Shown piece by piece: positions 27,901 through 50,111 of a stretch of DNA of 64,000 nucleotides (within the stretch, counting starts at the first letter, position 1; every line of letters begins with the position of its first letter). The stretch comes from Catajapyx aquilonaris (lineage: Eukaryota): positions 1 to 64,000 of the forward strand of contig JYFJ02001929.1 in NCBI GenBank assembly GCA_000934665.2. Reading direction: 5' to 3'. The position numbers and the translations under genes are program-made. Below the pieces are notes generated by a model, which saw nothing but the letters and a program-made list of their open reading frames with translations, was not told where the DNA came from and did not search any database.

Positions 27901-30900
27901 GATACGTACGGACACAAAACGTATCCCATTTGAGTGGCCCAGCTGTGATTGTGTGTGTCGTAGAAAAAGAGAGATTTTCGGATATACTCGATCCTTCCTG
28001 CATTAGGAGACTGCTTCCTTTGTGATTTTTCAGTTCCGTTCCCTTTGACGAACCTTCATGCAGTATAACCCTCACTCAATCCATTTTGCGACAAAAAAAT
28101 TGCAAATATAGCCAGACTTTGATACAAGAAGGATTTACTGTTGATCCCCTGATGGACATCACATTTTAATGTGTACACGCTATTTGCATTACTCTCCAAC
28201 TCTTTTTTTGCAATAGTATGCAGTACCATATAATGAAAATAAATATGACAAGGACACTCCGCCACGCAATCAGACTCGGCGAAAAAAAAATCGCACACAA
28301 TATGGGCAGGCCTGCAAGTGTAGACGTCACTCCAGAGACGTGTTTGGCAACCCGAATAGGACGCTGACACAGTTGGAATTCACGTCATCTCTTGGGATTC
28401 TCCCGGGACGACAACCCGAGCTCTCACAGACCTCGTTGACATGTTGATTGTATCGCGCTGCGGTATTCCAAAGGGGGGGAGAAAATGTACGGTGTGGGGG
28501 AGGAAGGTGGAAAACCTAGGAATTCATAGCTGCTGCAAATGGAAGGACAGGATTTTTTATAAAAAAAAATTCAACCTGGGCCACCAGAGGAATAGATATC
28601 TCGAAGCAAAAAAAGGTAGATTGAATCTGCTTTTTTTTGTCTGAATACTTCAGCTTGGAAGCTACTTTTTTTTCAATTTTTTCTGTACTTTGTAAAAAAA
28701 AGCTGGTCGGTCAATGGCATCCGGATTCAGCTTCCATGTTGCAAAAAAAAGCGAGCACGACTTTCACGACATTTCGAAATCATAGCCCATTCAATGTAAC
28801 AGTAAAAAAAAAAACTGAGGTCTAAGACCCGAGGCAATTTCAGATTTTTTTTAAAAGTCAGAAAGACTTCTCAATTGTATTAAGAGCAACCGTGCCAGCT
28901 AATGAGAAGTGGAGGACTTTCAATGGAATTTAGTAGGAGTAATTATTACAATAGATACCTCAAGTACTGAGATTTAAATTATTGGTGAATTATTTTATTA
29001 TTATTAACCCAGCTGTGCAATGCATCTCTTAATGAGTCTGTAATAGTTCTTAATTTTCTCATAAATATGTTTTAATAAATAACATAGTAATTCAGGCTGG
29101 CAGGATGGAAATAACTGCTTAATAATAACAAGAAAAAAATCGAAATCACGTCGACTGAACAACAAACTTCATTTCGATCGCCCTTTTCATATAGTAAATA
29201 ATTCTCTAACTGCATCTCTCTCTATATCCCTTAGGAAACGTCGGTTAGCGCGCAATTCTCAACATTTTCAGGATGATTGAATTCATCTCGACTTTCGACC
29301 TCAAGGGGCCTGGCAACACCACGAATGAGGGAGGGGGATGGGGAGCTAAAAGAAGGGGGGAAAAAGAAATAGAAGAAAAGGGCCCTGACGGGAAGTGTTG
29401 GTTGTCAGGGAAAATGGCCGGAAGGCCTTATTCTCAAGACTTCAAACGTGGGAGAGAGAAGTGTTCCCGGAACTCCTGGAATGAGTGAAAGAAACGGCCA
29501 ATGGAAAAAGGGGGTCGCTTTTTTTTAGGTGGGGGGTTATATGGCAAGAAATGAGGAAGGCGCCGTTGCTTGAAAAGAGTAGAAAAACCCCCTCAGAAAG
29601 AATGAGCCGTTTGGTAAAAGCAAAACAAACTTTCATACTCGATTAGCACTGATGTTTTTTTTTGGTTGAAAATACTGCTGGTCAACAGGATGTTAAATGT
29701 CGTATTTTTAATTTGAATATACACAACTTTATTGAGGACTATAATTTTCATGAATGTGTGAGACAGACCTTGAAATGGGTTGGCTTTGGAGCCTGGTTTA
29801 TATATATTTTTTTGCAATATTGATAGTTTAGGCGTGGCCCAGTGCCAAGCAGGCGCCTGTCTGAAAAAAAGGTCAAAGCATCAGGGTGCTTCGTACAGCC
29901 TGGGAAACTATACAAGAGCAAAACCAAATTGGCAAGATTCCGGAACAACAGCGCATTGCGCTACTTTTTTTTCTGGTCGACTATTAGCCTCCAGTAAGAG
30001 AAAGTATATGAAAATAAATAGTTGCATATGAACCACAATCCTACAAAATCACCAATAAATTCGTGTAGATTATTGCAACAAACATGTACATTGTACATAA
30101 ATAAGTATGTTTTAAAGGGGGTCCTGGTGATTGTTGCTTCTCTTTAAACAGTCTGCTGGAGTAAGCAATCAATAAGTTCTCCTCGCTTTTTAACTTGGAC
30201 AGTGCACAACCCGGTGTCGAGTAACACAAAAACTAGTTAACAACATTGATTGGAGAAGAGCAATATTAATAGGTGTCAGAGAGAGAGAGAGGTTGAAGCT
30301 GGAAGTAGTGTATTACAAAATTGCGAGTTCATCATGGCTTGGCACGCATATGAGCAGCATATGGTGCACATGATATGCTTGTCAGAGAATGAAGTGTGTC
30401 GGCTTGTTGTCTGTATTTTTTTTAATCGACTGGTAGTGTTGGGTGATAGCCGTCCATAAATGGCGTAATCCATCCTGTTTTATGGTTTGGATATGGAGTA
30501 AGGCTTTATGAACATGCCGCATGTTAATACAGTACTCCAACTCGATGTGAAGCAGAATTCGCACACTGAAAAAAACCAGTTAAAAAAATTGTGTTGCATA
30601 TCTGTTTTGCTCATCTGAACATATAGAGTCGAATCAGTGCAGTCTGCGGTTCCGCTGACGTTAAATTTTACTAGGGCTGACTCTCCCAAGAGACTCATTT
30701 CACTTGGTTACCTTCAGTAATGCAAACTTTAAGGGATTACGGTAATGATGCGGAGCTTGTGTGGGGGGGTACCCTTTTGGAGGAGTAAATTTCCCGAAGC
30801 ATAATTACTGCGGCTCCGTTAGGTAACACAATGCACAGGGTGTTTGCATATATTTTTGGACCTCTGACTGTTTCCGCTTCTTGGTTCGCTTCCAGGTGCG

Positions 30901-33900
30901 ATATTCACCGAGGAACAAAAGGACACGAGTACAGAGCTTGCCTTCAAGTACGCGGTGTACACCATAAACAAGGACAGAAACATACTTCCAAACACAACTC
31001 TGGTGTACGATATTCAGTACGTCAGAAAAGACGACAGCTTCAGGACATCCAAGAAAGGTAAGCATACTCTCATATTATTGAGCAAAATTAATGTATATAT
31101 AATTTTAATTAATTCAAAATCAAATTTAATTGTAATATCTTAATTAGATTCGATTCGTGTGACTATTTTGGTGTGTGATGTTGCAATGGTAAATCCACCA
31201 AGAGAGCAAAGGACCGATATTGCCATTAAGTTGCTTAATGTACATGTTCCGATCAAAAATTGCCAGTTAATTACCGATATTGCAAAAAACCGGGCAGTGA
31301 GATAATTACGTGAAAAATGATAATGCTGCAGCCTCACATTGATTGAGTGAAACGCGGCATGTTACAATTACAAAGTGCTCATTGTAGCATACGATGTGAA
31401 CTGTCCAGTGATATATATATTTTTTTAAATAAAAAAAATCAAATCTGCAACATGCATTTAGTTATATTTTTTATTATCATACAATGGATTTTCACGATCG
31501 GATTATCCAATTAAATTTTCTCGCAACAAACAACACGTAATGTTATTTTGCTTTTGTACAGATTCCCAATGCAATGTTAGTCATGAGTGAACATTAGCCA
31601 TGTAAAAGTGAGTTTGCATTCATATTGGACATTACTGAATTCGCAAAAAAAAAAATTAAAACCGGATCAAAAGCACATGATGTTCTCTCTCTCTCAATAT
31701 ATTTGCCAATATCTCCCTCTGAATTTGGTTATTATGTACAGTAGGCCTACTCTAAGTTGATGTGAATTTTTCTTTTACTGACTAACAGCAATGGGACTAA
31801 CAATTAAAGGCTTTGTGACGTAATAGCCTACCAAGGATGTAATTAGTGCAAAGGTGATTAAATCAGTCTGAGGGCCCGTATGTAGGGTTCCGCACAAATG
31901 TGACTTTGTAACCTTCCGTATAATGCAACCGACTTGACATGAATGTGTGGCGAGCCGTATAATTCCCTCTCTAGCTGGCCTTGACAAATCTACTATAAAT
32001 TAGTTTTAGAGCCTCGACACAGCATTTTATCCGTGGTAGGATGGTTGCTCTGGCGTTGTCACATGAGACGACGACCACTCCACATGTTGGGGCTAAGTAA
32101 GTTGAGTCCATTAACTGTGGGGGGCAGTCCTGAGGGGCTTATGGCGTGAACATGCTCGTTGAGCACCAGCCACTAATCAGACGCTGTCCTGAATATCGCG
32201 CCGCTAATTACTAATGTGGGCGAAGGTGACATGTCCGCTGTTTGTCGCCAACTTGATCGTGCATTCAGCGGTTGGCAAGATAACCTTTGAGTCGGTTATC
32301 TGGAATTTCTCCGAAACAAGTTATGGAACACCCTGTGTATTCGCATAGGCTTATATCCAACATCTCTCTCCGCTTAAACACAGCTAGACTATTCATGAGG
32401 ATTAGTTTGCGAGAGGGTCGTGAAGACTGCAAAGCTGCTTTTCCGGTCCGAGTTGCTTTTCCGGGGCATCTTCGGCAATTAACCCCTCAGGTCGGAACCG
32501 GGTTTTGATAAGCAACACCCAGCCTCAATTTGCATGGATTCCCTGCGACTACTGCGAGAACACCTTCAGATAACACTGCGCAGGGAAACGTTACAAAATA
32601 TTTATGATATTTTTAGCAACTTTTAGTACACCACTCTTGTTGACATTCTTTTTGCGAAAGTGGACCAACTGCGATTTTTTTTTGTTGGCCACCGGCCTGT
32701 AGTTTTACTTTACAAAGCAGTTTGGTGTGGTAACCCACACACTTGGTGAGAGTGACACATGCACGTGTGATCCAGGGGAGAAGGAATTTAGGCTGTGCAT
32801 ATAGGACGTATCCGGAGCATTTAGGGTTGGCAGTTAGGACCGGTGTCGGGTGAATGGAAAGTGCCAGAGGGGGCCAACTGCCAATAAACTCCAGGGTTTA
32901 TGCCACGGGCTCGGCTTTTCAGCCGCGGCCACACCATAGCCTAGGGGGGCCCCCTGTGGGCCCCGGGGCCCATGAAAATCACCCCATTCCCAGGAAGAAG
33001 CCGGGCTCTTACCTAACATAATTCGGACGCATTTTAATGGCTCGTTTCGGACCATAATCAAATGCAAATGGTTGGAAGTCGACCTTTCGTTTCCTCCGGT
33101 TATGATTAGTGAACTTCTCTAGTTCGGTGAACGGGGAAAGTGAAGATCTATGGTAACTACTACCTAGGCGCTAGGCGATGAGTAAACATGGACAAAGAAG
33201 CGGACAGACAGAATATGGGAATTAGTAGTATGATTTGGGGACATGAACTTCACCAGTTGGATCCTGCTACAAATGTCCATTTGGCACGAAGGCAACGACC
33301 TCTCATCAACGTCCATGTCCGCCTGCTGGCACTTTTATACCGAATTGCACCCAAAAAAAACCCAGAGTGGTCCATGCTGGTAGAGAGTTGGGCGAGTTAG
33401 TTCCCCACGTCATCCGGCTCTGAATGTTTTACTGGGGAAAAAGAAAGAAGTGTCTATTTCCGAGTGTGCCGCCCAGTCAAGTGTGTGAAGGTCCCCCCTT
33501 TTTTTCCTTCAATCCCACCCCAAAAGAGTCTCTTTGGGAACAAGAGAGGGGGGGCCAAATGAGGACTGTGGCCATCGACCTTACGGCTGTTTTCCCGCTA
33601 ATCCCGACCCCGCAAACCGCCAATTTCCGGGTGATTCTCAGGCCGTTTTTGGCTGGAGCATGGGGAATACTCGCCAGTATAGAGAGTGGACAGGCCTGTG
33701 TTGTCAATTTTCAATGTAATTTTTTTTTGTCTCTAAAACTACAATTTTCATAGTAAAGAGTTGGTGTTCAAATAAAGCAACCAAAATATTTGTTTCCCTC
33801 CACTTTTTTTTTTTGGTTTAAAGGTACAAAAGGTTTATCGCATATTGGACCCTCCACTTTGTCCGGCAGGTTTCCGGAGCGGATGAAAGACAAACAGATC

Positions 33901-36900
33901 TAAAAGGGTCCGAATCCGGTTGCATGTGGACCAAACATAAATCTGAACCCTTGAATCAGACTACAAAAAAATGCAGGCTTTTTAACAATGCAATCTGATA
34001 TTTACCTCCAGCAGTTAAAACACACATTGAAGCCAGATAGACACGCTCTTTAATAACTGTCAATTACCGGCCGAATCCATCCGACGGAACATATTTTCTG
34101 GTTTAAAGTCTGAGCCTCGGTCACCAGGTTTTTGATCCAGTTGTAATCAGTCGTCCCAGCGAAATGATGAACGTTTTTCAGGTCATTTTTTAAAGCCCCA
34201 GGGTATGAATTGCTGCGGGGGTCCTTCCGGGTCGTAACTTTCCGAGCAATTTGAAATCAGTGTGATTAATAATCGGATTGCAGGCCACCTGGTTGGACGT
34301 TGAAGTGTAATCCGATTCCCGGTTCCGCGATTAGATCCCGGTGTGTGATACAGGCTGCTCTCTTCATTATTATGGCCTCTGATGACAGTCAACAATAACC
34401 ACGCCAAGCCACATTAAATTATCAGCGTTTTCCCCCCACTAATCCTAATTAATCCAAGTGCTTCGTGATCAAAGTTATTCGGATTCCTATTGTTGCGAGG
34501 CCAACACTGGATATCCCAAGGGCTACTATTGTGTTCAATTCATTGTTGTCAACGGTTCCTCACTGACTAATCAGAGTGGTCCACAGGCACATTTAATTCA
34601 GGAGTATATGGCGAATGCGTATATGATGACAATGCAGGGTCTGCTGCATTATTACTCACCTCCGCGTGGGTAATTAAATTCGCGCGGCATTTCAGCAGGA
34701 TTCCTCAGCTTCAAAGGCGGAAAGGCATACACACGGAAAGGTTCGGGTCTTCTGAGGCCATTTCCAGCCGACTTTGTACCTATACCATTTCCTCCAATTA
34801 AGCACTTGAGAGGTCTCAGTGGTGGCCTCGGGGCCATGCCACTGACCTGATTCATCCTGCGCAAACTTATTTCTGCACAACAAACGTAGAGTACTAATTA
34901 TTAGTAATTATTAACATGATCCAATTAACTCGTACTCGACTGCGCGAACATTGTGATAAAATCAGATGAAATATTCAGGGTATAAACCACTTGCGACGAT
35001 ATGCACTTACCTTTGAGGATTAGCGAAAATGTTTGCGATATCTAAGTGAATCTGCCGAGGGTAATGTACTCTAGTTTTTTAAATATTTTAATAGAAATTT
35101 GCTGGAGAATCGCGCGGCATGTACTTCCAGAGAGTAATGCATTGTGAATTTTTTCGCAAAGATTTGTCTAGAGGCTCGTTTTCCGTTAGTTGCAATTTGC
35201 TTTGGTATAAGTAAGCTCATGAGCTGCATTGTGCTGTATTAATCGAAATGTACGGAGTCTGTGCACCTTCGGGGCTTAAATTCAGATTCGATATACCGAC
35301 CGAGTGTGTCAAAATCATATGTCTCCAGTACAAGGCAACAGGTTAATCCGGAAAGTTGCATTACCGAAGCAGGACTGTAAATTCAGTTTGAAATATTTTC
35401 TCTAGAGAATATACCACTATGTCTTTGCTATAGATAAGTGAAAGAGGGTTGATTTTGGCATCACTTTTGCAAATTGTATGTTTTGGAAATCCCACAAATG
35501 CAGAGTTCAATATAGCTTTTCTGGTTAACTGACAGCGAAATCGGAAATTTAATAACCAACGGCTAGTAATATTCCGGGGTGGTCCCAAAACGGCTATTTA
35601 ACTGCGGAACTGAACTTCCTGGCGCCTTATTTAGTATCGAACCTCGTGGCTGGATGCCACCACCAGATAACACTCACAGTTTCAAAAAAAAAAGAGAGCG
35701 AGAGAGGCCATTCAAAAGCACTGTTGGAAAATGCAAAACTGCAATTAACACTTGGGTGAAGTGGCCGAAATTCGAAATGTTTCACATTCAATGGCCATTC
35801 ACTAACTTCTACCCCCTCGTAATTTACTGTGATAATTTCTATAAAACAGTAGGCTAAAACGATACCCCCCCCCCTATGCCCTGTTAACCGGCAGTTAAAA
35901 AGGCTGCTCATGTTCACAGCACAACCAAAATAGCGGTGATTTTAAGTAGCAGTCATTGGTGGCAAAATTATTTGCAATTTCCAAATGGACTTGACAAATT
36001 CGCAGGCTGTCAAAATAACAGTAGCAATTTCGTCATCCGCTATCCCCCCTCGCTCAAAATCAGTCCGATTCACATCCGATAAAACGTCCAAAACGGTTTC
36101 GCAACCATAAATGCGAAATCATCATTCACTCACACGAGTAGAAATTTGCGGCGGGAAACGTCCCAGTGTCCCGGTCAGACCGATATATCACAATGGAGGT
36201 TGGGATGGGCTCAATTTTGCGAATATGCGAATGCAAAAAAAATTGGCATTTTCTCCCTACCTTTGCTCCAACGGTGGTCGAGTATGTGAATCTCTCTCTC
36301 TCTCTCTCTCTGCGCATATTTTTCATGAAGGGCTCATGCAACTCAATTGTGAGAGTTTAATATCTCAACCGACCAACGCGCTCCCTTCCAGCCCAATTTC
36401 ATTTTCAATAACCCAGCAAACCTGGCTGTGAAAGGTTTAATTAACGCAAAAGTCAAATGCCAGGGAACCGGAATTGGAATACTAACGCTCGGAGCTCAGC
36501 CCCCCCAGTCGAACAGGACCCACAAAAAAATGATGTAAATTGTTACATTGCATTCATCGACTTGAGTGAAAAAAGTGCGTTAATTAAAGCACCTCACTAT
36601 AGTATCAATCTCCTTTTGACCAATCTGAACTAAGTGCACAAAAATGACCACCAGGTGACTTTAGACTAATTGGCAAAAAATTCGAAATGAATTTTTTTCA
36701 ACATTTCTGTTAAATATTGTCTATAATATTGTTGTCTTTTTAGCTTGCAGGCAGATCCGATTCGGTGTCCAGGCCATCTTCGGTCCGTCTGACCCTCTGT
36801 TGGGGTCACATATCCAGTCAATTTGTGATGCTCTGGACATACCTCACCTGGAGGCCCGACTGGACTATGAGCCTCACATCAAAGAGTTTTCAATCAACCT

Positions 36901-39900
36901 GCATCCAACACAGGACCATCTCAACCAGGCCTTCAGAGACCTCATGGTCTTCCTCAATTGGACCAAGGTCGCCATCCTCTACGAGGAGGACTTTGGTATG
37001 TATATTCACCGGATCTCGTTGTCTGCAAAACCCAAGTTTTATGGGGCCAAAGTTCCCGGAGCGAATGAAGAAATTATTTGTCCTTTCTCATTCCCTTTTT
37101 TTCCTTTTGTTCCCTACGGTCTCCTTTTTTTCTCCTAGTTCCGGGACAGGGTTATTTAGGTCTTGGGAGGGCCGTTAAAATAGGAAAATGGTGTCGTTAA
37201 CAGTGGCATGAGATGAGAGCATAAAAGGATGAATAGGAGGGGAAAGGGTATAGAGCAGCAGATTTACTGGGTCTTAAGCAGATCGAATTTGGCTGTCTGT
37301 ATGGGAACTATTGGCTGGGATGGCGTAATGGAATGAGTACTTGGACCAACCATCATTTGTTTACGGGCCTAAGAAGAACGCATTGTAGGATGGGTGGCAC
37401 AATCCTTTACTTCAAAACGTCCTATGAAGTCCCCAGCGTCTGGCACAAAAATAATTCCTATGTGGAAAGAATTGTGTTGGTTTTCTTATGATGCTCATTC
37501 GTTGTTTTTCTCCACTCCACATACAGGTCTTATAAAGCTAAGGGATTTGGTCCGGACTCCGCCAGCCAAGAACATGGAGATTCACATCAAGCAAACTAGT
37601 CCTCCAAACTACAGGGCGATCCTGAGAGACATCAAGAGAAGGGAGATCTACAACCTAATAGTGGACACCCGTCCTGACAACATGTACAAATTCTTCAGGG
37701 CGGTGAGTTGCAAAACATTCTTCTCATTTAGGTTCAGTTTTAATTTTAATTTGCCCCCCCCGCAATGAAGTCATGCCCATTTGCTCTAATTGTTACAGGC
37801 AAAAGCACGTCAGGGTCGATTCGGTGTAAGCCACGCTTTAACCCCGAAACGGCGCAGAATTAAAACGTCCCCTGTTTAATCCGGGTAATCCGTGTTCGCG
37901 GCTTGTTTTGAAGTGATAAATCCGGAGCGAGGAATTTGCGAAAGGGTTGCACTTTTCGGGACTCTCTGCAACAGCAGTTTGATCGACAAGGACTCATCAT
38001 GTGTAGTAGCTGAAGGACTTTGACATGGCTTGCAATCAAAGGAGCTCTTTTTTTTTCAAGGTTCTTCCGTTAGAGTTGGGCACTTTGGGAATTTACAGCG
38101 GGTCGTAAGAAGGTTTATGGCAATGTTAAACACTCGTAGGTTTCACTTTTGTGGGTGGATGTGAGCATAAAAATTCAATCGAACTGTAGGAGGTATTTTT
38201 CAGATTGTTTGTTGGCGGCGGATGATGTAAGAGCTTGAACATTGTCGAATTCGATTCAAAATGGGCAAAAAATTAACCCAGTAAATCATGCAATACCTCG
38301 TTAAAAGTAACATCACAGCAGATAATAAAAAGGAAGGAAGAAATCTTATTCGTGTTTATGAAGAATGTCTGAGTAAATCTGAAAATTTATGAGGCGAACT
38401 AGGTCTTAACGTGATATCTTAATTTTCAGGTCCTGCAGCTTCAGATGAATGACTACAGATACCATTACGTATTTACAACCTTCGTAAGTTGCTGAATATT
38501 TTGCGATTACTTTTATCTGAGCAAAAATGGGTAATTATTTAAAGTCTCTGTCAAGTAGAATTTAAAAAATGAGGGTAAATTACAGCATGTAGTAAATTAG
38601 GTTGCAGATAGCTCTAAAAGAGACGTTTCAGGCTCAGAAAAAATCCATATTTTTTTGTAATTTTTAGGATCTGGATGTTTACGACTTGGAGGACTTCAAG
38701 TACAATTCTGTGAACATGACTGCTTATCGTCTGGTTGATTCGGAACACGCCAAAGTACGAAACATCCTTCACGCCATGGAAAGGTTTCAGCCCATCGGAC
38801 ACAGCATTGTGAATCGATCGGGAATTATTCAGGTGAGGGTTGGACACGAGATGACTCGATAAACCTTACGTTTCCTGCCACTCATAGGGTTTCTTCCATT
38901 TTGATTATTTTTTTTCCAGGCCGAGCCAGCTATGGTGTTCGACAGTGTGTTTGCTTTTGCGAAAGGTCTGGAGTCCCTGGATGGAGGCCATGCCCTACGA
39001 CCTGGAAACCTCTCATGCGACGACGAGTTGCCTTGGAACGACGGTCTCAGCCTGTACAACTACGTTAATTCGGTGAGTATAGTCCTTTTGATTAATTTGG
39101 AGACGTTTTGAGAGACATATTTGAGGCAGTGTGCTTTTCCGACACCTTAATTATGCCACTTATCCGACACAAGCACAAAAAGGAGGAGTAATGAGCCACG
39201 TTTTGTACGTGGAGGCATCATCGTTTGGCCCCAGACCAAAATTCATCTTCAAACAAAAACCTGGAGGCTATTGTGCTCCGGATTCCTGCTGGTTTTACCC
39301 GCATTTAAAAGAGGCCTTGTAAATGTTCCAGTGCGCGTAATTTGCGGGATAATAACATGGAAGATCTCAGCCGTGGCCATATCAGATGAGTGAAGACCTC
39401 TCCTCTTTGCTGGACATGGCCCACTCGCTTTGTTTTGACTGCCTCGCTAAAAGGGACTTCGGACAAGAACCATTGCTTTTACTGCCTGAACAACTAAGTG
39501 CTAACAAGGGTTAACGTGCTCTCCAGAGCATGAATGTCCTTTGAATAAGGTGTTCTTCATTTTTACCGGTACACAGAAGTAATAACACTCAACATATGCC
39601 TGACAGAGTGACCCCAACAATAAATGATAATCTCTTAAAACTAGTATTTTTTTCCTATTTATGGCCTGGCACTTCGACTCTTGTTGTACAATTAGTAAGG
39701 TGTTAAAGTACTGGTATTTAACAAGGTTGAAACGATGATTGAGTGACGCAATGCGGTTATCTTACACCGCAATGAAATCAGTGACCGAGCTGTGAAACAA
39801 ACAAATTAGTTGTAATTGGCGCAGTAACATAATGGCATGGCATTAATGCTAATTATTGATAATAGCCCCTGCTCAAAATTACTGGACTCTAAATCCACTT

Positions 39901-42900
39901 ATGGAATATTAATATTCAGGCGATAATCCCGACCGGCTAATTCCCTAACAATTGCAATGAAGAGGCTTATTATTGGACGGTTAAATGTCGCTTATATGTA
40001 TTAGAGTGAAACAGTCTGTAACTGACCAGGAATATTGTGAATGACATTTGAAACTCCATTTTTGAGAACCTGTGACCAGAGGAAATATTTTGCATACCAT
40101 TTTTGATTCATCTAGGAGTTGGCAACCATTAGCTTAATATTAAGGAGTAGTTTTTTAAGTTTTGCGTCACAAAAGCTGCGGGTATAAATCAGGGGCTAAA
40201 ATTCTTGACACAGGCAAGCATAGGGAATATGCGAGTGAAATCCTCCCTTCTCTAGTTATCGAGCGTTGCTGCTGTAATTACTCAGTCAAATCCGGAAGAT
40301 TAATGATGCAACAATATTAATATCGACACTGGAAGCCTCTGACGTTGCTCTTCAAAGTTTCGGTAATCATCAACTGCACCTTTTTTTTTTAAAAAAGGGC
40401 AGAAGCTGCATAATGACAATGGCACGTACACCGTATACCAAATAATAATGATTTGTTTGGTACGGTAGTTGTACAGTAGTTTCTAGCCCAATGAAGATTG
40501 AACACCCTGTATCCTGACTGTGAATGGCAAACCTTGAGTCTCTTCTGTTTGGTTGGAAGTCCACATGCCAGGATACATTCACTAGCAAGTACTCGTTTTG
40601 TTTACTGGTTTACCGGAATTAAGTGCAATAATTATTAGAGATGACAGGTATTTCTAAACTTTGGCACACTCTGCTTGTAACTCTGCTCCGTTTTAACTGA
40701 CACCATAGCCTTTTGACCCTGAGGTGTTTGCCTAGGTGTCCTTCCAGGGTCTGACGGGTCGGATCGAGTTCAAGGAGGGCAGAAGAAGCAACTTTAAACT
40801 GGACCTGCTCAAACTGAGGAAGGAAGTGGTCCGGAAAGTTGGAGAGTGGAATCCAAGCAAAGGAATCAATGTCACGGATCCAAGCGCTTTCTTCGAAGGA
40901 GTCGTGCCAAACGTCACACTCATCGTCATGACACTGGAGGTCAGTACCATTTGTAAATATGCCAAGTACACTCTCACCAGGGAAATAATTAAGTAATTAT
41001 GACTGTTTCATTAAATATTTTTTCCATCTATGTAAGCGGACATTGACAGAGAATGTGCCGTTATAAACGTCATACCCAATTGCTTTAAGTAGTGTTGACT
41101 GCAAAAATGGATCGTTAGTGTTGGTCCGCACTGGAAAAACAAACCATTGCACTTGCACAATAGTACTTATTACGGTAATGTGCAATAATGGCACTTTGTG
41201 GTTTGCGAAACGAGCGTTGAAAAAAAAACACATGGTGGGACTAAAAGTGCTGTCAACCGAATTGCCCAAATACACTTAACAAGTGTGTTGTTTTATCGCG
41301 CATCTTCAACCCTCCAGGGCACAAACATTTCACACCCTAATAAATTGGATTCAATAATTTTGCAACGCATCGTGTATGGTCGCTATTAACTCCTGCAAAT
41401 ATTTATTACCTCAACGCTCGCTTGAGTTTTAGGTGATGAGAATAAAGGGCTTTGCGCTCCAACAGTTTGCTCTTCGGACACAATTTTTTTTTTGTGCTAA
41501 TGAAATACGTCATCGCACGTGCTTAGCCTGATAAAAATTGCAGAAATGCAAACTTTTTGCTCCCCCCCTTGAGGTCATTAAAGCAGCCATTTAACTACCG
41601 TTTTTTGTCCGTTTAAGAGCTAAGCAGGACTGATTATCATAATGAGCTCGTAATAACGGGCGCATTTGGAAAGAGCAAGGATTACAGTACTTAAGCTTAA
41701 ATTGAAACTGAATATTACATCTGTTGCCAGTGTCTCGTTACACGATTTAATTGAAAGTGAGAATTATTAGTGATGAAGAAATCACAATCGCTGTTATTAA
41801 TAAAACTAGCAGCTACTAGAATTAGAAGCTTTTAATAATGCTGCTCGAAATTAGCATCTGGTTATAGAGTTAGCTTCTAATTATTCTGTAATTATTATTA
41901 GCTGTAATATTCAGCACAAGCTGGTTAGACTTGATATAAAATTAATGTTTGACATGATTTTTGCTAATTTACACTTTTATTTCATTGTAGATTAGGGCCT
42001 ACTACTTTTACCTTGACTTTTCCATGTAACAATGCTGTATGTATTTCTTAACGATATTACTTGCACTTTTACTACATCTTTTAAAAGGTGGATCGGCTAG
42101 AAATGCAGGCCAGTAATGAAGGAAAATAATTGCGCATAAAAATAAACCGGGAGCTGCCGGAAGCAGTGCACATTGATTTTTCATTCTCATTAGCCTAGAG
42201 GCCTGAGGATAATGCCACGGGTCTCATTAGTGGTGGTTTTCCTCCAAAATGCTAAGTTGCGCCCCCCCCCTCCACTCCTTTTCCCCGTGAAAGGGGTCAG
42301 AAGACGAGATCTCTTTCGGGGCCATTATTGAAATGAGGCCCTGGAGGTGGTCACGGGGCCAAGGAACTTCTCCTCAGAGGTACTTTCCTAAGACTCTGAG
42401 AAAAGAAGCCCTCACGACTAAACTTTTCGGAAAAAGAAAATTCCAATTCAGGGGTGTGCAAATTCGGATCAGGTTTCATCTTCATACCTTGGGGGGAAAT
42501 ATATAGAGAATTCTTGACGCATAGGAAAAGTAGGTAGCCTTATAGAGAGCATCCAAGATGTGGAATGCTTTACTTCAACTTAATCCAAAATTGTCCATTT
42601 AAAGCTCTTTGTAACTTCCACACAGAGGTAGTGAGTTTAACAAGCTGAAAACTTCCTCTCGGATTCATAAAAATTCAAATGGCGGGTGTAATTTTCCACC
42701 ATTACCTCTCCCCAGGCCATTCACTGGCTGGAACATGTACTGTACTTTACATGAAACTTGCTGCAGGCTGACTTGACGCCTTTTTTATATAGAAACGGAA
42801 GGTCTACAGTACAGGATGCGAAAATATTCATTGCAAAGAAAAGTTCCTTCCAGAAGTCGGCAGAAGTCTGGAGAGGCAAAAATTCGGATAAAGAGTCAAG

Positions 42901-45900
42901 GTCTATAAATCAAGTTCAGGCTATCCGTCGGTTCTGGCATTCATGACTCTTATTCTCTCCTTTTTTCCTCCTTTCTTTCATCAGTTCCCAGGAAGTTAAA
43001 AAAAAGAAACTTTCGTCCAGGAACTTCCTTTTTTATCTCAAGGATTCGCTTCATTTCATTTCCGCTTGAAGATATTCTGCCTTTGCATTAGCACACCTTT
43101 CTTTTCTACCGACTTCCTTTTAACCAAAGTTTTGTACACCTCCTTTTGAATATGTATAAAAAAATTGAGTTCCCGCCTGCAAGGTTAGGGCTGATTGTTA
43201 ATATAGCTCTCATCCAGACACTTCATTGTGTAAGTAATATTGTAAATGAAAATATGGGCAAGGATCATAATAACATAGAGGCGCAAACTTCTGTCGGAGT
43301 CTTTGATGCCCGCGTCTCTCTGTTTGGGGCCGTTGCCAAGGCTGGCGGCCATTTTGAAGTGTGAGCAACGCCAACGAGGTATAAATAGGGTACAGGCAAA
43401 AATAGGGTCGGCCATCTTTGATGGTTTTGGCGGCCATGGCAACTGCACGGCAAGAACACACGCGAATCAAAGATGGCGGACCTTATTTTTGCCTGTACGT
43501 ACCCTATTTATACCTCGTTGGCGTTGCCCACACTTCAAAATGGCCGCCAGCCTTGGCAACGGCCCAAACAGAGAGCGGAAATCGAATGTTCGCGCCTCTT
43601 TTGTAGCTCCCTGATATGGGTGAGTAACAGGCACACTGATTTTGACTACCATGTAAGAAGGCCTATATTAGGGAACCAGATCCGATTACAGGTCATGGAT
43701 AAGGCTAAGAGACCTTAGACCAAGAACTGGGAAAACCACTGCCAAGAACTTCGGATAATTCCAAGAAAATGTTGGCCTCTCTCCGTTCCCACATGCAAAA
43801 TGTAGAGGATCAGGGTTCCTTTGTCTGTTACTCGATTCCAGGAGAGGCCGTACGTGATGGTCCGTCCAGGCCGCAACCTAACGGGGAACCTGAGGTACAC
43901 CGGATTCTGCATCGACCTCCTGAAGGCCATTGCCAACCTGGTCGGATTCAACTACGAAATTCGGCTCGTGCCCGACCTCAAATACGGGGCCGTCGACCCG
44001 GACACAGGAGAGTGGAATGGAATCGTCAAGGAGCTCATCGATAAGGTTTGTGCTTGAGAAAGTGTGCGTTGAAATTATTCTCAATGTTCTGTTGGCGTCA
44101 TTGCTCCTGTGGGCTGTTGGGAACACTGCGATTTAACATGTGTACCAAAAATGAGGCAGAAAATGGGCGGGGCATACACTGTCGATGGGCGGGGCTTATG
44201 CAATGAGTGGGCGGGGCATAAACGGAGATGGTCCTATGCCCCGCCCATAGACAGTGCATGCCCCGCCCCTTTTCGGCATCATTTTTGGTGCACAGGTGAG
44301 ATAAGTAGGTTTGCACGCAACACTGGCAGAATTTAGATGATTTACGGCCCAAGTATTTCTTCCAAAGTAAGAACCCCGCATCGTTTGAGCAGGTGAGATT
44401 TATGAGATCGGATTTGTGAAGAGGCTTTGACTAGAGTTTCCCCCTTAGAGATATTCGTCAAAGACTTTATTTACCTGTGGGATGATAAATTGGGAGACCA
44501 AATTTTCTCCCCCCTTCCTTCCTTTTCGGTCGTATCCCCCGCCTCGTACTCTTCCAATCGTACTTTTTCCGGAATCAGCCTTCACATCACTCTCAGTCAC
44601 TCGAAGGATTTTGTAGTATAGGCAAGAAGAAGAAAAAAAAATCTCAAAGAAGTTCTCCTAATTGCTCGGAAAAATTTTCTCCATCTCTAAGTCGGTTTTT
44701 CGGCAAGCTCTTTTGAAAAGCGAAAGTAAAAAAAAAAAAAAGCGAACCGCCCAATCCGTCTAGTTATTGGCATTTTTGATTGTTCGCTCACCTTATTAGT
44801 TCTCGTTTATTACTTGTCGGCTTATAACTTCCTCGAGGATTTTCGACTGGCAATGGCAACCTGTAGCTCATTACTATTTTTTGTTAAGAGCAGGAATCAC
44901 GGCTCAAATATTTCTCTCACTAACAGCTACGATCAAAATTCTGTTGCCAAGGAAAGCGGAATATTTTTCACTGAAATTTTTCATCTTGCTTATAACTTCA
45001 CAATATTAGGTGACACCAATGCACGAATATTTTTTTAAAGTAGGTACTTGACCAGCAGGATTTAGACTTGAAACTTTACCAGACATTTCCAAAGGTCGTA
45101 CACACAATAATTAGAGACACATACAATACGGGCATAGCCTCAATCACCGCATAAATTTTTAATCTTAATAGGATCTCTCTCTGCTGGATTAGGACACCAG
45201 CTCCAGATAAAGCCTGCTGTATGGAAGCCGCACTAAAATAATAAGCCATGAATAATAATTTGCTTGCGGGCAGTCCACAGTTCAGAGACAGCCTAGAAAG
45301 CCCAACGTGACCGAGACCCGCTGCTATCTCATCAGCATTCAGTGTCGTACGATAAAACATGTTGGCTCAGCTTGAATCCCGGGCCTAAACCGCACGACCC
45401 ACCACCATCGCATATATTTGACTATGAAAAGGACTGATGCATCAGGCCTGTCACCTTTTTTGGGTCTCTCTCTCTCACTCACACACACACACTCTGATGG
45501 GTATATGTAGGATATATTGCAAGGGAAAAAAAGTTCGCATGCTGCAGGCGACGGGTCCATTTGTGTTCATCGAGGCGCATTTCGTGTATTTGTATGTGAC
45601 GGTGGGACTTGTGGGTTGATTATGAGGGTCAAACGGCGCCTGCATTGCGGTTATGAGGTGGATCTGATAGTATGGTGTTGTTTCCTTCAGATTAAGTGTC
45701 TTGAATTCATCTCTCTTGAAAGAGATGCATGATATCCTAATCATGTAACCATAATAAACAGCAAAAACTGTACACATTTTCAACATCTACATGTGTGTAT
45801 TCCAGAAATCAGATTTGGCTGTTGCATCCATGACCATAAACTACGCCAGAGAAAGCGTCATAGACTTCACCAAACCCTTCATGAACCTTGGAATCAGCAT

Positions 45901-48900
45901 ATTGTTTAAGGTTAGTAAGTTTTTTTATTGCCTGAAAAACAACATTATAGTGCAGGGTTCTACTTGTGGAGAAGCTTGACTGTTTTGTGAAACAACAAGT
46001 CCGTCCTCTCTTCAGTTTGTTCCCACTCTAGTCCACAACAGAACAAGTGCTTTGCCACCACTCTGCTTGCCTTGCACTTGTTAACTGAATTACGGCCAGG
46101 TCCAACATGGCATATCCTTGTGAGAGGCACAAAATTTAATTATGGTTTGCGATGAAGGACAGTCTTTAATTTTGTGTCGAGGTAGCAGCAGCAGCAGCCT
46201 TCACCGTGGGCTCAGGTGGTGATGGCACCAATGACACTTGAACTGGCACTCGCGCAAAAGTATGGCATTAAATAATTGCAATTGACTTTATCTTATTAAT
46301 GTGTTAATAGTAAACAACAGTAATAAATTTTGCGTGTAAATAATAATTGGTTAGTCAAATTAATTCGTAAAATTACATCAAGACGTGCAAATAATGTTTT
46401 GACAAAGTTTTCGGATGACGGACGAGAGAATCGACTTCGGATTGATGCAACATGCAGTTTCATTCGCAGGATTTATTTTTCCAGCCCAACCGCATGTCCG
46501 TTGTTTGTGAAGTGCAATCATACTTTTAAAAAAATTGTGTCACTCCATTTTTGCCACATGAATTCACACGATATATTGGAGTAAATATTGAGCTGTGTTG
46601 CTGACCAAAGCGTTCAAGGATCAGGCATTTCAAACTTGACCTCCAGACCCCTACAAGCCAGCCGGCCCTTCTGTTCAGCTTCATGAACCCCCTGGCAGTG
46701 GAAATATGGCTGTACGTGCTGGCAGCCTACATCCTGGTCTCCTTCACCCTCTTTGTGATGGCCCGATTTTCCCCATACGAGTGGAACAACCCCCATCCGC
46801 CAAGGGAGGAACCTCCAATGGTCGAGAACCAGTTCTCCATCTCGAACAGTTTCTGGTTCATCACTGGTACATTTCTCAGGCAGGGCTCAGGACTCAACCC
46901 GAAGGTCAGGTTGATTCTCACAACCCAATATGACTGCTGGAGGAAGGAGGTTTTAAGAGGACTCGTACTGGGGGAGACCACTCTTATGTCTTATGATCAT
47001 GTGTCCGGGGGTCATTTTCCTTCTATTTTTCTATTTTTTTGGACATTTTTAGGTCCCTCAGAGCATGCCCCGTCGTCTGTTCTCGTTCATGACCCCCCTT
47101 GCGACAGAGATCTGGGCCTACATCGTGGCCGCCTACCTGACAGTGTCCGTCACCATTTGGGTGGTGGCCAGGTTCTCCCCCTACGAGTGGACAGAGCCCC
47201 CTCACACCAGTGACCCCTGCCTGATGACCCCTTCCCCGTCAGACACCACTCAACCCGTCAACAACTTCACCCTTTCCAACTGCTTCTGGTTCACCATGGA
47301 AACTCTCCTACAACAAGGATCCGGAATCTACCCGAAGGTACCATAGAGTTGGAATCTCGTCATGTGCCACCTGAATCTTCAACATTTAAAGATATAACAT
47401 TGCTCAAAATGATTAGGCTGGAACATCCTGTTATACATTTTTTATCGGTGGCCTCACGAGTGAAAATAAGCACCATTATTAAACGATTACATCGCAGGTG
47501 AATCCAGTCGTGAAAAATATTTAGATTCATCATCATTGGCGTGGGATGCCCCCTGAACTTAATGATTCCTGTACCGTAGAGGAATTCAAAAATAAGCACC
47601 GAAATTTAATTTCATTCACTTACCCCAATGTTACTTCATTCTACTACTGTTATGTCTATCGGTCTCTTTTTTTATTTTAATGAAGTGCAGGATAGAAACA
47701 ATCTAAATCATTGGCATACGGATTACACTCACAGATTGAGCTTTCACAACCATAACCTTTTTGATGCGTTTAATGTGTTTTGAGCTACAAAACTCCCCAT
47801 CAATGGCTTCAAGGCTAATGCGACCAGTGACTGCCGTTTACTTTTACATCTTTTCCAACAATGGTGCTTATTTTCAAAACTCTATGGTACATGAAATCCT
47901 TGTAGCTACATGTAGTTTCACAAGCTTTTCCCTTGCATTAGTTTAATTTAATCAGTAATAATAACCCATCACCAATCATCGATCGTCTATGATTTAAAAA
48001 AACAGGCAGCTTCCACACGGATAGTTGGCGGAATCTGGTGGTTCTTCACTCTGATCATAATATCTTCATACACGGCGAACCTGGCAGCCTTTCTGACTGT
48101 GGAGAGGATGATCACTCCCATAGAGAGCGCGGAGGATCTCGCGGATCAAAGCGAAATACCGTACGGCACCTTGGAGAGTGGATCGACCATGACCTTCTTC
48201 AGGGTGAGTCTATTCCAGTCAAAAGATCAACAACTTGTGGAATGACACTCGTTTCGTAGGACTCGAAGATCGAGACGTACCAGAAGATGTGGCGGTACAT
48301 GGAGAGCCGAGAGCCAGGCGTGTTTGTGTCCACATATGAGGAAGGTGTGAAGAGAGTCCTGAGGGGAAACTACGCCTTCCTGATGGAGTCGACGATGCTC
48401 GATTATGTGGTGCAACGAGATTGCAACCTGACACAAGTCGGTGGACTTCTCGATTCCAAAGGATACGGGATCGCCACTCCTAAAGGTACATTTCTAATAA
48501 TCCATCCTACAAAATGTGTTCAACCTATGACAATATTCAGGTTCGCCATGGAGAGACAAGATATCTCTGGCCATACTAGAGCTTCAAGAAAAAGGGACCA
48601 TTCAAATCCTGTACAATAAGTGGTGGAAGAACACTGCTGACGTGTGCAACCGAGAGGAAAAGGGAAAGGAATCAAAAGCCAGTGCACTGGGCATTGAAAA
48701 CGTCGGTATGTAACTACGATGCATTGCCATCAATTGTGGTCATGTCACTTCTTTAACACGCTTTGTTACATCTCAGGAGGCGTTTTTGTGGTGCTGTTGT
48801 GCGGACTGGCTCTGGCCATAGTGGTGGCCATTTGTGAATTTTGCCTCAACTCGAGGAAAAACGCCAAAACAGACCATGTAAGTAAACTCATCCGAGAGTG

Positions 48901-49356
48901 AAACTACAGCATGAGGCATAAGCACAAAAAATATTGCAACAACACAAACCAATCTCCGGGAGTGCTAGTGACTTCTTGCTTTAAATGATCCTGTAATTTA
49001 CTATCAGAGCTCTCAGCAGTAAGAACAACAAAATGATTTCAGAAATCAATATGCTCCGAAATGGCCCAGGAACTTCGCCTGGTGCTCCACTGCTCATCAA
49101 AAGCATCTCGAAAGAAGTCTGATCTCAAGAGATCATGTTCCAGATGCTCTCCCAGCACTTACATGCCCGCCTCACTTGATCTACATCAGCTTAATAGGGT
49201 GCCGGTAAGTTACATGTTACGAGCGAAATTAAATATCTTGTTTAAAATAATCTAAGTCGCATCTCTTTCTTCTTTGCGTACATATAGGAAAACGGGATCA
49301 TACCAATGATAGAGTTGGACAAATCTCCGGTGATGAGATTCGGAATGGATCAGTGA
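24784..49356 (+). CDS. Kainate-type ionotropic glutamate receptor subunit (GRIK/KaiR-like), multi-exon; 938 aa with exon 11A, 947 aa with exon 11B
   Basis: Manual splicing of 17 GT-AG exons gives 2817 nt in one frame to TGA 49354-49356. Domain order is signal peptide, ATD ([19 protein letters not shown]), S1 ([29 protein letters not shown]), M1, M2, M3 ([15 protein letters not shown]), S2 ([36 protein letters not shown]), M4, C-tail. The glutamate-binding R, T and E are intact. The exact orthologue cannot be assigned without a phylogeny. Confidence 0.96.
25491..25874. mobile_element. Non-autonomous Tc1/mariner-type MITE-like element (intron 1)
   Basis: Terminal inverted repeats CAGGGTGATATTCA / TGAAGATCACCCTG (13 of 14 match), TA on the left flank and TG on the right, no ORF. 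A mini-copy acagggtg-aatcaaaa-caccctgt lies at 25942-25965. Confidence 0.55.
30896..31057 (+). CDS. iGluR exon 2 ([56 protein letters not shown])
   Basis: Acceptor ttccag, donor gtaagc, typical kainate ATD start. Confidence 0.93.
36744..36995 (+). CDS. iGluR exon 3 ([20 protein letters not shown]...[12 protein letters not shown])
   Basis: Acceptor tttttag, donor gtatgt, frame continuous. Confidence 0.93.
37527..37702 (+). CDS. iGluR exon 4 ([11 protein letters not shown]...MYKFFRA)
   Basis: Acceptor atacag, donor gtgagt. Confidence 0.92.
38430..38483 (+). CDS. iGluR exon 5 ([18 protein letters not shown])
   Basis: Acceptor ttttcag, donor gtaagt, conserved YHY.FTT motif; too short for the ORF track. 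Confidence 0.9.
38668..38832 (+). CDS. iGluR exon 6 ([24 protein letters not shown]...GIIQ)
   Basis: Acceptor tttttag, donor gtgagg. Confidence 0.92.
38920..39072 (+). CDS. iGluR exon 7 ([10 protein letters not shown]...[21 protein letters not shown])
   Basis: Acceptor ttccag, donor gtgagt. Confidence 0.92.
40736..40939 (+). CDS. iGluR exon 8 ([12 protein letters not shown]...[10 protein letters not shown])
   Basis: Acceptor cctag, donor gtcagt, GLTG.I.F motif. Confidence 0.93.
43277..43599. repeat. Long intronic palindrome / foldback MITE-like element (intron 8)
   Basis: Core arms ~43316-43422 and ~43466-43575 are near-perfect reverse complements with a ~43 nt loop; outer agaggcgc...gcgcctct also pair. 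Confidence 0.85.
43842..44045 (+). CDS. iGluR exon 9 (S1: ERPYVM...GFCIDLL...[11 protein letters not shown])
   Basis: Acceptor ttccag, donor gtttgt. Confidence 0.94.
44136..44297. repeat. Intronic palindrome / MITE-like element with five GGGCGGGGC boxes (intron 9)
   Basis: ~60 nt arms acatgtgtaccaaaaatgaggcagaaaatgggcggggcatacactgtcgatgggcggggc versus its imperfect reverse complement ending ...catttttggtgcacaggt. Confidence 0.85.
45806..45910 (+). CDS. iGluR exon 10 (S1: [35 protein letters not shown])
   Basis: Acceptor ttccag, donor gttagt. Confidence 0.95.
46647..46904 (+). CDS. iGluR exon 11A: M1-M2 pore exon, Arg form ([20 protein letters not shown])
   Basis: Acceptor ctccag, donor gtcagg, 258 nt, phase 0-0; Q/R-site codon AGG at 46878-46880. 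Confidence 0.94.
47053..47337 (+). CDS. iGluR exon 11B: alternative M1-M2 pore exon, Gln form ([20 protein letters not shown])
   Basis: Acceptor tttttag with a pyrimidine tract, weak donor gtacca, 285 nt, phase 0-0, no stops, homologous end to end with 11A; Q/R-site codon CAA at 47311-47313. Confidence 0.88.
48006..48203 (+). CDS. iGluR exon 12 (M3 gate SYTANLAAF, start of S2)
   Basis: Acceptor aacag, donor gtgagt. Confidence 0.95.
48260..48485 (+). CDS. iGluR exon 13 (S2: [11 protein letters not shown]...GYGIATPK)
   Basis: Acceptor tcgtag, donor gtacat; preceded by a 56 nt intron. Confidence 0.94.
48541..48705 (+). CDS. iGluR exon 14 ([18 protein letters not shown]...KWWK...ALGIENV)
   Basis: Acceptor ttcag, donor gtatgt; preceded by a 55 nt intron. 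Confidence 0.94.
48777..48877 (+). CDS. iGluR exon 15 (M4: [21 protein letters not shown])
   Basis: Acceptor tctcag, donor gtaagt. Confidence 0.93.
49043..49204 (+). CDS. iGluR exon 16 (C-tail: [17 protein letters not shown]...)
   Basis: Acceptor tttcag, donor gtaagt, frame continuous. Confidence 0.85.
49288..49356 (+). CDS. iGluR terminal coding exon 17 ([22 protein letters not shown])
   Basis: Pyrimidine tract plus tag acceptor, phase 0, stop TGA; supported only by splice signals. Confidence 0.7.
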   Translation, partial: ENGIIPMIELDKSPVMRFGMDQ

Positions 49357-49547
49357 TGGTGATCCAGATGGATTGAACCACATTGCAGCTGAGAAAAGCC
49401 AAAGCCTTAAAGTCTGTGATATAACCACCAACCAAAAAGAAACCATTGAAACGGCGAATGCTGCTCACTCATCGCTATCTTTTTAAAAACTTTTCTATTG
49501 TAAGCCCACTTGCATACACTTGTGGGACCGTGACATGTCAGTGTTTT

Positions 49548-49553
49548 AATAAA
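49548..49553 (+). terminator. Candidate polyadenylation signal of the receptor gene
   Basis: AATAAA ~190 nt after the stop, followed by T/GT-rich sequence. Confidence 0.5.
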
Positions 49554-50111
49554 GAACGCAGTTATTTTTATTACTAACATTATTGTGTAATTCGTTAGGG
49601 TTTTTCTGGTCAATTTTTTAAATTATGCCCTACTGTTATAAACCGTAAGGGAACAGCTGACGAAAGCTTCTGTCAGACCTTGTGAAAATATAATCCAAAT
49701 TACGTATTTGTTTATCAGAAAAAAGCAATCAAACTGTTATTCGTATAATTGATTCTGACCAGAATCAGACAAAATATTGATGATTTCATAACACGGAGAA
49801 TTGAAGGCCCGATACTTATAAAGGCCAACCTTGAATGCAATGAGCATCCTCTGAACCTTCAACTCCGCGAAATCCAATCCTTTTCCAAGATCCGATTAGA
49901 GCGTTTCCGCCGGTGCTCAAGTACCCGCGATTTAATTAGTCAATGCGCCCCGTACAGTAATATCCAAGGCCTGAAAGGCTAAGGCCCCCATTTACAGCCA
50001 AATCTTCATAAGGATCGTGTTAAGAAACACGTTTAACTGGGATGCGTTGGTAATTAAACAAGACAGAAACTGTCGGAATTGCAATGTATACGTTTCATAC
50101 CAGGCTTACGG

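Follow-up and report, generated by a model that had tools for sequence, protein, structure and literature searches.

Tandem pore exons with arginine or glutamine at the Q/R site in a kainate-type glutamate receptor gene of Catajapyx aquilonaris

Introduction

Can an arthropod choose between arginine and glutamine in the pore of a glutamate receptor by splicing rather than by editing? The question is raised by a 64,000-nt stretch of the Catajapyx aquilonaris genome (GenBank assembly GCA_000934665.2, contig JYFJ02001929.1, positions 1 to 64,000; referred to below as the window), in which a kainate-type receptor gene carries two adjacent homologous pore exons, 11A and 11B, with different residues at the Q/R site. 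In vertebrates the Ca2+ permeability of AMPA and kainate receptors depends on the editing of a single codon, and an arginine at the vertebrate Q/R site affects Ca2+ permeability, conductance and polyamine block. An earlier reading of the window from its letters alone (the sequence-only reading) had proposed that the two exons are mutually exclusive, giving Ca2+-impermeable and Ca2+-permeable subunits from one gene, and had suggested Drosophila CG11155 for comparison.

CG11155 is little studied. According to one report the gene is essential, as a T2A.GAL4 insertion in it is homozygous lethal (PMC10847715). The R/Q arrangement is already visible in public annotations of CG11155 orthologues, and in a literature coverage that is incomplete we found no paper in which an arthropod glutamate receptor is described with pore exons that are duplicated or alternatively used.

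Results

The gene was located by tblastn of the orthologue proteins P0007, P0037 and P0011 against the window. It lies at 30895–49338 on the forward strand, like all features described below, and comprises exons for the amino-terminal domain, S1, the pore, S2, M4 and the C-tail. The pore is encoded between a single-copy exon for the end of S1 and a single-copy M3 exon. The S1-end exon (45806–45910) ends in GISILFK, in phase 0, with the 5′ splice site AAG/gttagt; it matches Pfam Lig_chan-Glu_bd (PF10613, E = 1.3e-13) and is 86–91% identical to its orthologues. The M3 exon (48006–48203) contains SYTANLAAF and was assigned by reading the sequence together with Pfam and orthologue mapping. Judged from the S1/S2 segments and a Lig_chan domain with M1, M2 pore loop and M3, the gene is a kainate-type ionotropic glutamate receptor.

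Exon 11A (46647–46904) has 258 nt or 86 codons, is bounded by cag/ACC and AAG/gtcagg, and encodes a complete unit of pre-M1, M1, M2 and filter. Its Q/R-site residue is arginine (AGG at 46878–46880), with glycine at +4. Exon 11B (47053–47337; 285 nt, 95 codons, 5′ splice site AAG/gtacca) encodes a second such unit with glutamine at the Q/R site (CAA at 47311–47313), glutamate at −4 and glycine at +4, the latter two both being unusual. The intron between them (46905–47052) is 148 nt long, runs from GT to AG and has a strong pyrimidine tract ending in tttttag. Every junction from the S1-end exon through the M3 exon is in phase 0. The locus thus has the anatomy of a mutually exclusive cluster, with adjacent homologous exons of like length (258 and 285 nt), the same phase and AG/GT sites. 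Reading and translating the sequence bore out the description of two intact phase 0-0 M1-M2 exons that are separated by 148 nt and flanked by one S1 and one M3 exon.

At the protein level 11A and 11B share 51% identity (48/95 aligned positions, E = 2e-31). Both match Pfam Lig_chan (PF00060), 11A over profile positions 2–64 (E = 5.6e-19) and 11B over positions 2–63 (E = 8.9e-16), and the M3 exon matches the same family. An open frame of 95 codons would by itself arise with a chance of about 0.01, calculated as (61/64)^95, and the agreement as a whole goes well beyond chance. The best relatives of solved structure are GluK2 chains (E = 1.8e-26 for 11A and 2.8e-20 for 11B), and in these alignments the arginine of 11A and the first glutamine of 11B both fall on the GluK2 Q/R site. 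The genome-coded contrast of R (AGG) and Q (CAA) described in the sequence-only reading therefore holds, and the exons are true conserved paralogues.

RNA of this species was found in a single run, X1, the only run that contained part of the stretch. Its contigs match the window with 0 differences and contain GT..AG joints at 48483>48539 and 49203>49287; because of these joints and the absence of differences we take the contigs to be RNA-derived and from C. aquilonaris. One whole contig of 207 nt covers 47051–47257 with 0 differences. Exon 11B is transcribed. The contig begins 2 nt before the 11B acceptor, just where use of that splice site would make the assembly graph branch, and the acceptor is very likely in use. 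The sequence-only reading had counted a lack of reads using 11B against its own proposal, and that objection is removed by this contig. The contig has a depth of 4.8, compared with 2.2–5.5 for the downstream exons, contig depth being a poor measure. It ends at 47257, upstream of the CAA codon. Among the X1 contigs listed none lies over 11A, the M3 exon or the S1 exons, which is uninformative about the expression of these exons. An inverted-repeat search revealed no significant duplex of the ADAR type at the Q/R site.

To place the exon pair among related genes we examined the best 120 of 984 protein matches to 11A. They are annotated as "glutamate receptor ionotropic, kainate 2" and come from crustaceans (decapods, isopods, an amphipod, Daphnia and Artemia) as well as from many insects; the closest are 80–88% identical to 11A, and none exceeds 88%. 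CG11155 of D. busckii (P0115) is listed among them, and isoform B of D. melanogaster CG11155 (P0287) was also found. A second group of insect proteins with 70–75% identity to 11A represents a paralogous gene. In 116 of the 120 the R unit is followed directly by the Q unit before a single M3; three contain the R unit and a second M1 without a second pore, and one, from Bombyx mandarina, contains the R unit twice in identical form. The R-then-Q pair is seen in insects, decapods, isopods, amphipods and branchiopods and also in the second, paralogous gene. From the top matches, the R-then-Q layout and the clades described below, we identify the gene as the pancrustacean orthologue of Drosophila CG11155, so that the comparison suggested by the sequence-only reading proved apt: protein searches showed an orthologue with the same arrangement.

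The Bombyx mandarina protein (isoform X2, P0006) repeats the R unit letter for letter within residues 517–689 and lacks a Q unit, apparently an artefact of assembly or annotation rather than a biological duplication.

A tree was built from 47 units over 86 columns, drawn from the window, four outgroup units and a hand-picked set of 22 proteins; Daphnia and Diaphorina lost their Q units, and Ladona its R unit, to a coverage filter. Both paralogous genes contribute to a single clade that comprises 22 of 22 R units (support 100/100), 11A among them. The 14 Q units of the CG11155-type gene, 11B included, form another (100/98), and the 86 columns do not resolve the deeper order. As the R units of both genes group together, the exon duplication must be older than the gene duplication and than the insect-crustacean split. 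By these sequence comparisons the R/Q exon pair is ancient and predates the separation of insects and crustaceans.

Residues and layouts were then counted in the 270 proteins, out of 287, that had a unit match. The +4 residue is glycine in 246/246 R units, and in the Q units it is aspartate (255), asparagine (6) or glutamate (3). Position −4 is glycine in every unit that has a residue there. Near-invariant columns, defined from 15 other species, are kept at 67/71 in 11A and at 33/39 in 11B. The six changes in 11B (S>C, G>E at −4, M>L, D>G at +4, L>I and N>Y) all lie in a 20-residue pore stretch, with 0 in M1. General decay would spread changes, so the pattern suggests either a changed pore or a constraint that is relaxed on the pore only. 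The Q unit of D. yakuba shows 7/41 changes, and a Q-only isoform is annotated in that species. A search of representative proteins with 11B gave 931 matches at E ≤ 0.001, with best identities among the matches listed of 67% for an alignment of only part of 11B and about 65% across the complete exon, and thus no close relative; a word-index protein search with 11B gave no match.

Other pore-exon arrangements were encountered among the relatives. A kainate receptor model from the centipede Strigamia maritima (P0277) has, at residues of about 1409–1536, two tandem M2-only units before one M3, both with glutamine (…SLMQQGSDILPK then …SLMQQGSDLAPK). This looks like an independent duplication, and it seems that kainate receptor genes of arthropods have duplicated pore exons more than once. 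Hymenoptera have a Q unit divided over two exons, and the annotated isoforms P0088, P0120, P0123 and P0190 keep the R unit and the second M1 but lack the second pore loop, with …CPSCKCPLQ running directly into ATSTRIVGG, a form that should be topologically aberrant. The related glutamate receptor fragments P0336, P0339, P0347 and P0360 have histidine at the Q/R position and valine at −4.

Proteins with a single unit provide the comparative evidence for alternative use. Q-only forms make up 22 of the 270 proteins and include isoforms of 987–1022 aa in 18 Drosophila species, two entries from the termite Cryptotermes and isoform X6 of the beetle Onthophagus. Beside the latter, Onthophagus isoform X7 (P0243), from the paralogous gene, is a clean R-only form in which LLRQASGVNPQ is joined to ATSTRIVGG. 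The R unit is also followed directly by M3 in the three representative proteins P0321, P0326 and P0333, in P0321 with the preceding S1 end as well.

A metagenome scan with 11A yielded 37 loci. Four of them (L003, L006, L011 and L012) are intron-free contigs with complete open reading frames of 941–961 aa in the order S1, R unit, M3. In the genomic loci L019 (2190–2290), L023 (1526–1630) and L034 (4206–4310) the R unit and the M3 start AASTRIVGG stand in one exon. In genomic L013 (2939–3298) 108 nt separate the R unit from M3, and across S1 and the R unit its protein sequence is the same as in L012. All four genomic loci have no Q exon between R unit and M3 and have the end of S1 fused to the start of the unit. 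Since genomic loci of the same type contain no Q exon, we dropped the four intron-free contigs as proof of Q-exon skipping. The R-only receptor is a complete, expressed protein in some lineages, and alternative splicing is not implied by these contigs. The four genomic loci indicate that some lineages have an R-only gene, the Q exon apparently having been lost or never having been present there. A Daphnia-like locus (L001; R unit 94% identical to D. pulex) has the R unit joined to M3, and in the near relative L005 the 392 nt downstream of the R exon contain no Q exon. The insect-like genomic loci L007–L009 contain both exons, 0.9–2.9 kb apart.

The effect of including both units was assessed from hydropathy (Kyte-Doolittle, 19-residue means). 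The mean is about 0 for both M2 stretches and 1.2–2.0 for both M1 stretches. M2 is too weakly hydrophobic to span the membrane, so a tandem protein would gain one membrane crossing, which would place S2 and M4 on the wrong side. Judged by hydropathy, tandem transcripts are therefore likely to be non-productive. This agrees with the earlier claim that inclusion of both exons breaks membrane topology, by the addition of one transmembrane segment. An AlphaFold2 model of a tandem orthologue (Anabrus P0014, 44-row alignment) was uninformative, with a mean predicted local distance difference test score of 38.9 and a predicted template modelling score of 0.25.

We also searched the introns for pairings that could influence the splice choice. 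The first 13 nt of the 11B–M3 intron (47338–47350), at the 11B 5′ splice site, are complementary at 13/13 positions to 47878–47890. This downstream arm adjoins a second one, the two together occupying 47857–47890, of which 47857–47876 pairs with 47461–47480 (19/20). The downstream arms lie about 115 nt before the M3 acceptor. Both helices are present in the minimum free energy and the centroid fold of the 11B–M3 intron (whole-intron z = −1.6), and a perfect 13-nt match is expected an estimated 0.03–0.04 times in 2.1 kb. In the predicted fold, the 47338–47350 pairing could conceal the 5′ splice site of 11B or hold the intron in a loop.

The same intron contains a further pairing of 47589–47600 with 47863–47874. 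It also contains AAAATAAGCACC twice in direct orientation, and both copies fit one downstream arm, resembling a docking site with two selectors.

Other candidate pairings were weak. RNAduplex comparison of splice-site windows with non-overlapping introns and exons gave two weak matches only, which have z-scores of −2.2 and −2.3 and involve the 5′ splice site of the S1 exon in each case. A 14-nt pairing, 93% complementary, between the R-codon region of 11A (46876–46889) and 11B (47211–47224) is near chance (about 0.4 expected), as is a 16-nt pairing of 45985–46000 with 47908–47923 (0.4–0.6 expected for both pairings, estimate). No tandem repeats were found in 44000–50000, and six long open reading frames elsewhere in the window have no Pfam domain.

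Discussion

We give a little better than an even chance to the two exons being alternative pore cassettes. A single gene would then supply either R or Q subunits, co-inclusion would be leaky, and tandem transcripts would be a probably non-productive by-product. An ancient tandem duplication of the M1-M2 exon in the CG11155-type gene produced 11A and 11B. A transcript with 11A only would encode a subunit with fixed arginine at the Q/R site and glycine at +4, and one with 11B only a glutamine subunit. If GluA2/GluK2 in their edited and unedited states are a guide, subunits of the R type should conduct weakly, pass little Ca2+ and escape polyamine block, and the reverse is expected of the Q type. 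Exclusion would be leaky, and transcripts with both exons would probably yield misfolded protein because of the added membrane-spanning segment. The data establish the anatomy and homology of the pair, its age and conservation, and the transcription of 11B; for C. aquilonaris we infer both the separate 11A-only and 11B-only mRNAs and the difference in ion permeation.

Several observations weigh against alternative cassettes. In the 11B contig the first letters, AG, suit the end of the intron (..TAG), of 11A (..AAG) and of the S1 exon (..AAG) alike, so that any of the three may precede 11B in the RNA. Neither a steric block nor a frame shift can enforce exclusion, since the 148-nt intron, whose length is not divisible by 3, is big enough for splicing and both exon lengths are multiples of 3; the strict exclusion put forward in the sequence-only reading thus gains no basis from intron size or frame. 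In species where both exons are known we saw one clean R-only isoform only, that of Onthophagus, and the R-only mRNA contigs may stem from lineages without a Q exon. Moreover, 237 of the 270 proteins are tandem, with R unit and Q unit, although this count is inflated, since HMMER sums both units and so lifts tandem proteins in the lists, and tandem models may spread between species through homology-based annotation. The order S1, R unit, Q unit, M3 is found in D. melanogaster HL08030p (P0288, 562 aa) and CG11155 isoform B (P0287, 855 aa). The name HL08030p suggests the translation of a cDNA clone; if so, the R-to-Q exon junction is real in the RNA of at least one relative. The Clastoptera protein P0078, which has no genome contig on record and which we take to be transcriptome-derived, is likewise tandem. 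The exons are thus joined to each other in relatives, and a frequent junction of the 46904–47053 type, named beforehand in the sequence-only reading as evidence against it, is present in HL08030p (taken as cDNA-derived) and in most annotated isoforms. Of the proposed mutually exclusive use, the alternative use of the exons is backed by annotated Q-only forms in many relatives and one clean R-only isoform, and its strictness is not upheld in relatives.

These tandem forms could also mean that both exons are normally included, so that the main protein has two M1-M2 units, R and then Q, before M3, with one unit outside the canonical pore. The good splice signals of the 148-nt intron are in line with this, and both exons keep the frame, so that a tandem mRNA would not be degraded. 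We nevertheless regard it as improbable. M2 is insufficiently hydrophobic and the added crossing would misplace S2 and M4, Q-only and R-only forms exist, and each of the two units has retained the pre-M1 motif and the NPK end by which canonical receptors connect to S1 and M3. HL08030p and isoform B both end in TFFRHNKL shortly past the M3 exon, as though an intron had been retained, and the early stop of HL08030p looks like that of an incompletely processed RNA. A related and slightly less probable variant is that tandem transcripts are translated into a subunit with R and Q pore loops, one unit lining the channel and the other forming an accessory hairpin, a topology not known for any glutamate receptor; it deserves mention because tandem forms dominate the annotations, occur in HL08030p and are in frame.

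A stronger, though still unlikely, competitor is that 11A is the working pore exon and that 11B is accessory, drifting or being lost here, transcribed alone or after 11A without yielding a functional Q-type channel. Identity to orthologues is 80–88% for 11A and only 55–64% for 11B, and 11B has the longest end branch in the unit tree (1.4, median 0.16). It carries glutamate at −4, a position that is otherwise invariably glycine in the 270 proteins, and glycine in place of the acidic residue at +4; both the branch and these residues also weigh against alternative cassettes. The loci L019, L023, L034 and L013, which share the M3 start of this gene, do without any Q exon. However, 11B is open over 95 codons, with intact AG/GT sites and a strong pyrimidine tract, and it keeps all near-invariant M1 columns, so that its pore-clustered changes look like altered function and not like general decay. 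The D. yakuba Q unit is equally changed (7/41) and yet has an annotated Q-only isoform, and the RNA depth of 11B resembles that of the downstream exons, for what this poor measure is worth. That one copy is a chance look-alike or a dead, never-used pseudo-exon is hardly credible: the faster evolution of 11B and nothing else points that way, against the E-value of 2e-31 between the copies, the Lig_chan match of both, the conservation of the pair across Pancrustacea and the presence of 11B in RNA.

If the alternative-cassette reading is true, arthropods would possess a choice between two genome-coded pore exons that is older than the insect-crustacean split and constitutes a second, independent solution to the problem that vertebrates solve by editing. 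Most database models of the CG11155-type gene join both pore exons and may be wrong for the working protein. The reading would be directly testable in Drosophila CG11155.

The closest known system is CG11155 itself with its pancrustacean orthologues, which share the succession of S1 exon, R unit, Q unit and one M3, with an R unit 80–88% identical to 11A. They differ in the Q unit, which has about 165 aa in Drosophila and 95 aa here, and in its pore residues, as CG11155-type Q units have glycine at −4 and aspartate at +4 where 11B has glutamate and glycine. The intron between the units is also shorter here (148 nt) than in the insect-like loci L007–L009 (0.9–2.9 kb). The R-only receptors of the metagenome scan (L003, L006, L011, L012, L013, L019, L023 and L034) share a pore motif identical to that of 11A, followed by AASTRIVG as in the M3 exon here; the genomic ones among them (L013, L019, L023 and L034) differ in having no Q exon before M3 and a fused S1 end and unit start.

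Mutually exclusive tandem exons are known from other channel genes, namely the flip/flop exons of AMPA receptors, exon 8 of the insect nicotinic acetylcholine receptor alpha6 (the TM2 transmembrane segment) and exons 8/8a of CaV1.2. Common to these and the present gene is that neighbouring homologous exons, similar in length and phase, exchange a functional part of the channel, although flip/flop lies outside the pore. We take all three to be strictly either/or, whereas here a junction between the two exons occurs in a sequence of a relative that is taken to be cDNA-derived (HL08030p). The ADAR-edited receptors GluA2, GluK1 and GluK2 share with this gene the choice of glutamine or arginine at the same pore position, as placed by the GluK2 alignment, and either residue is available from one gene. 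Unlike in editing, AGG and CAA here each stand in a genomic exon of their own, and the difference extends over the complete M1-M2 segment, the +4 position included (G versus D).

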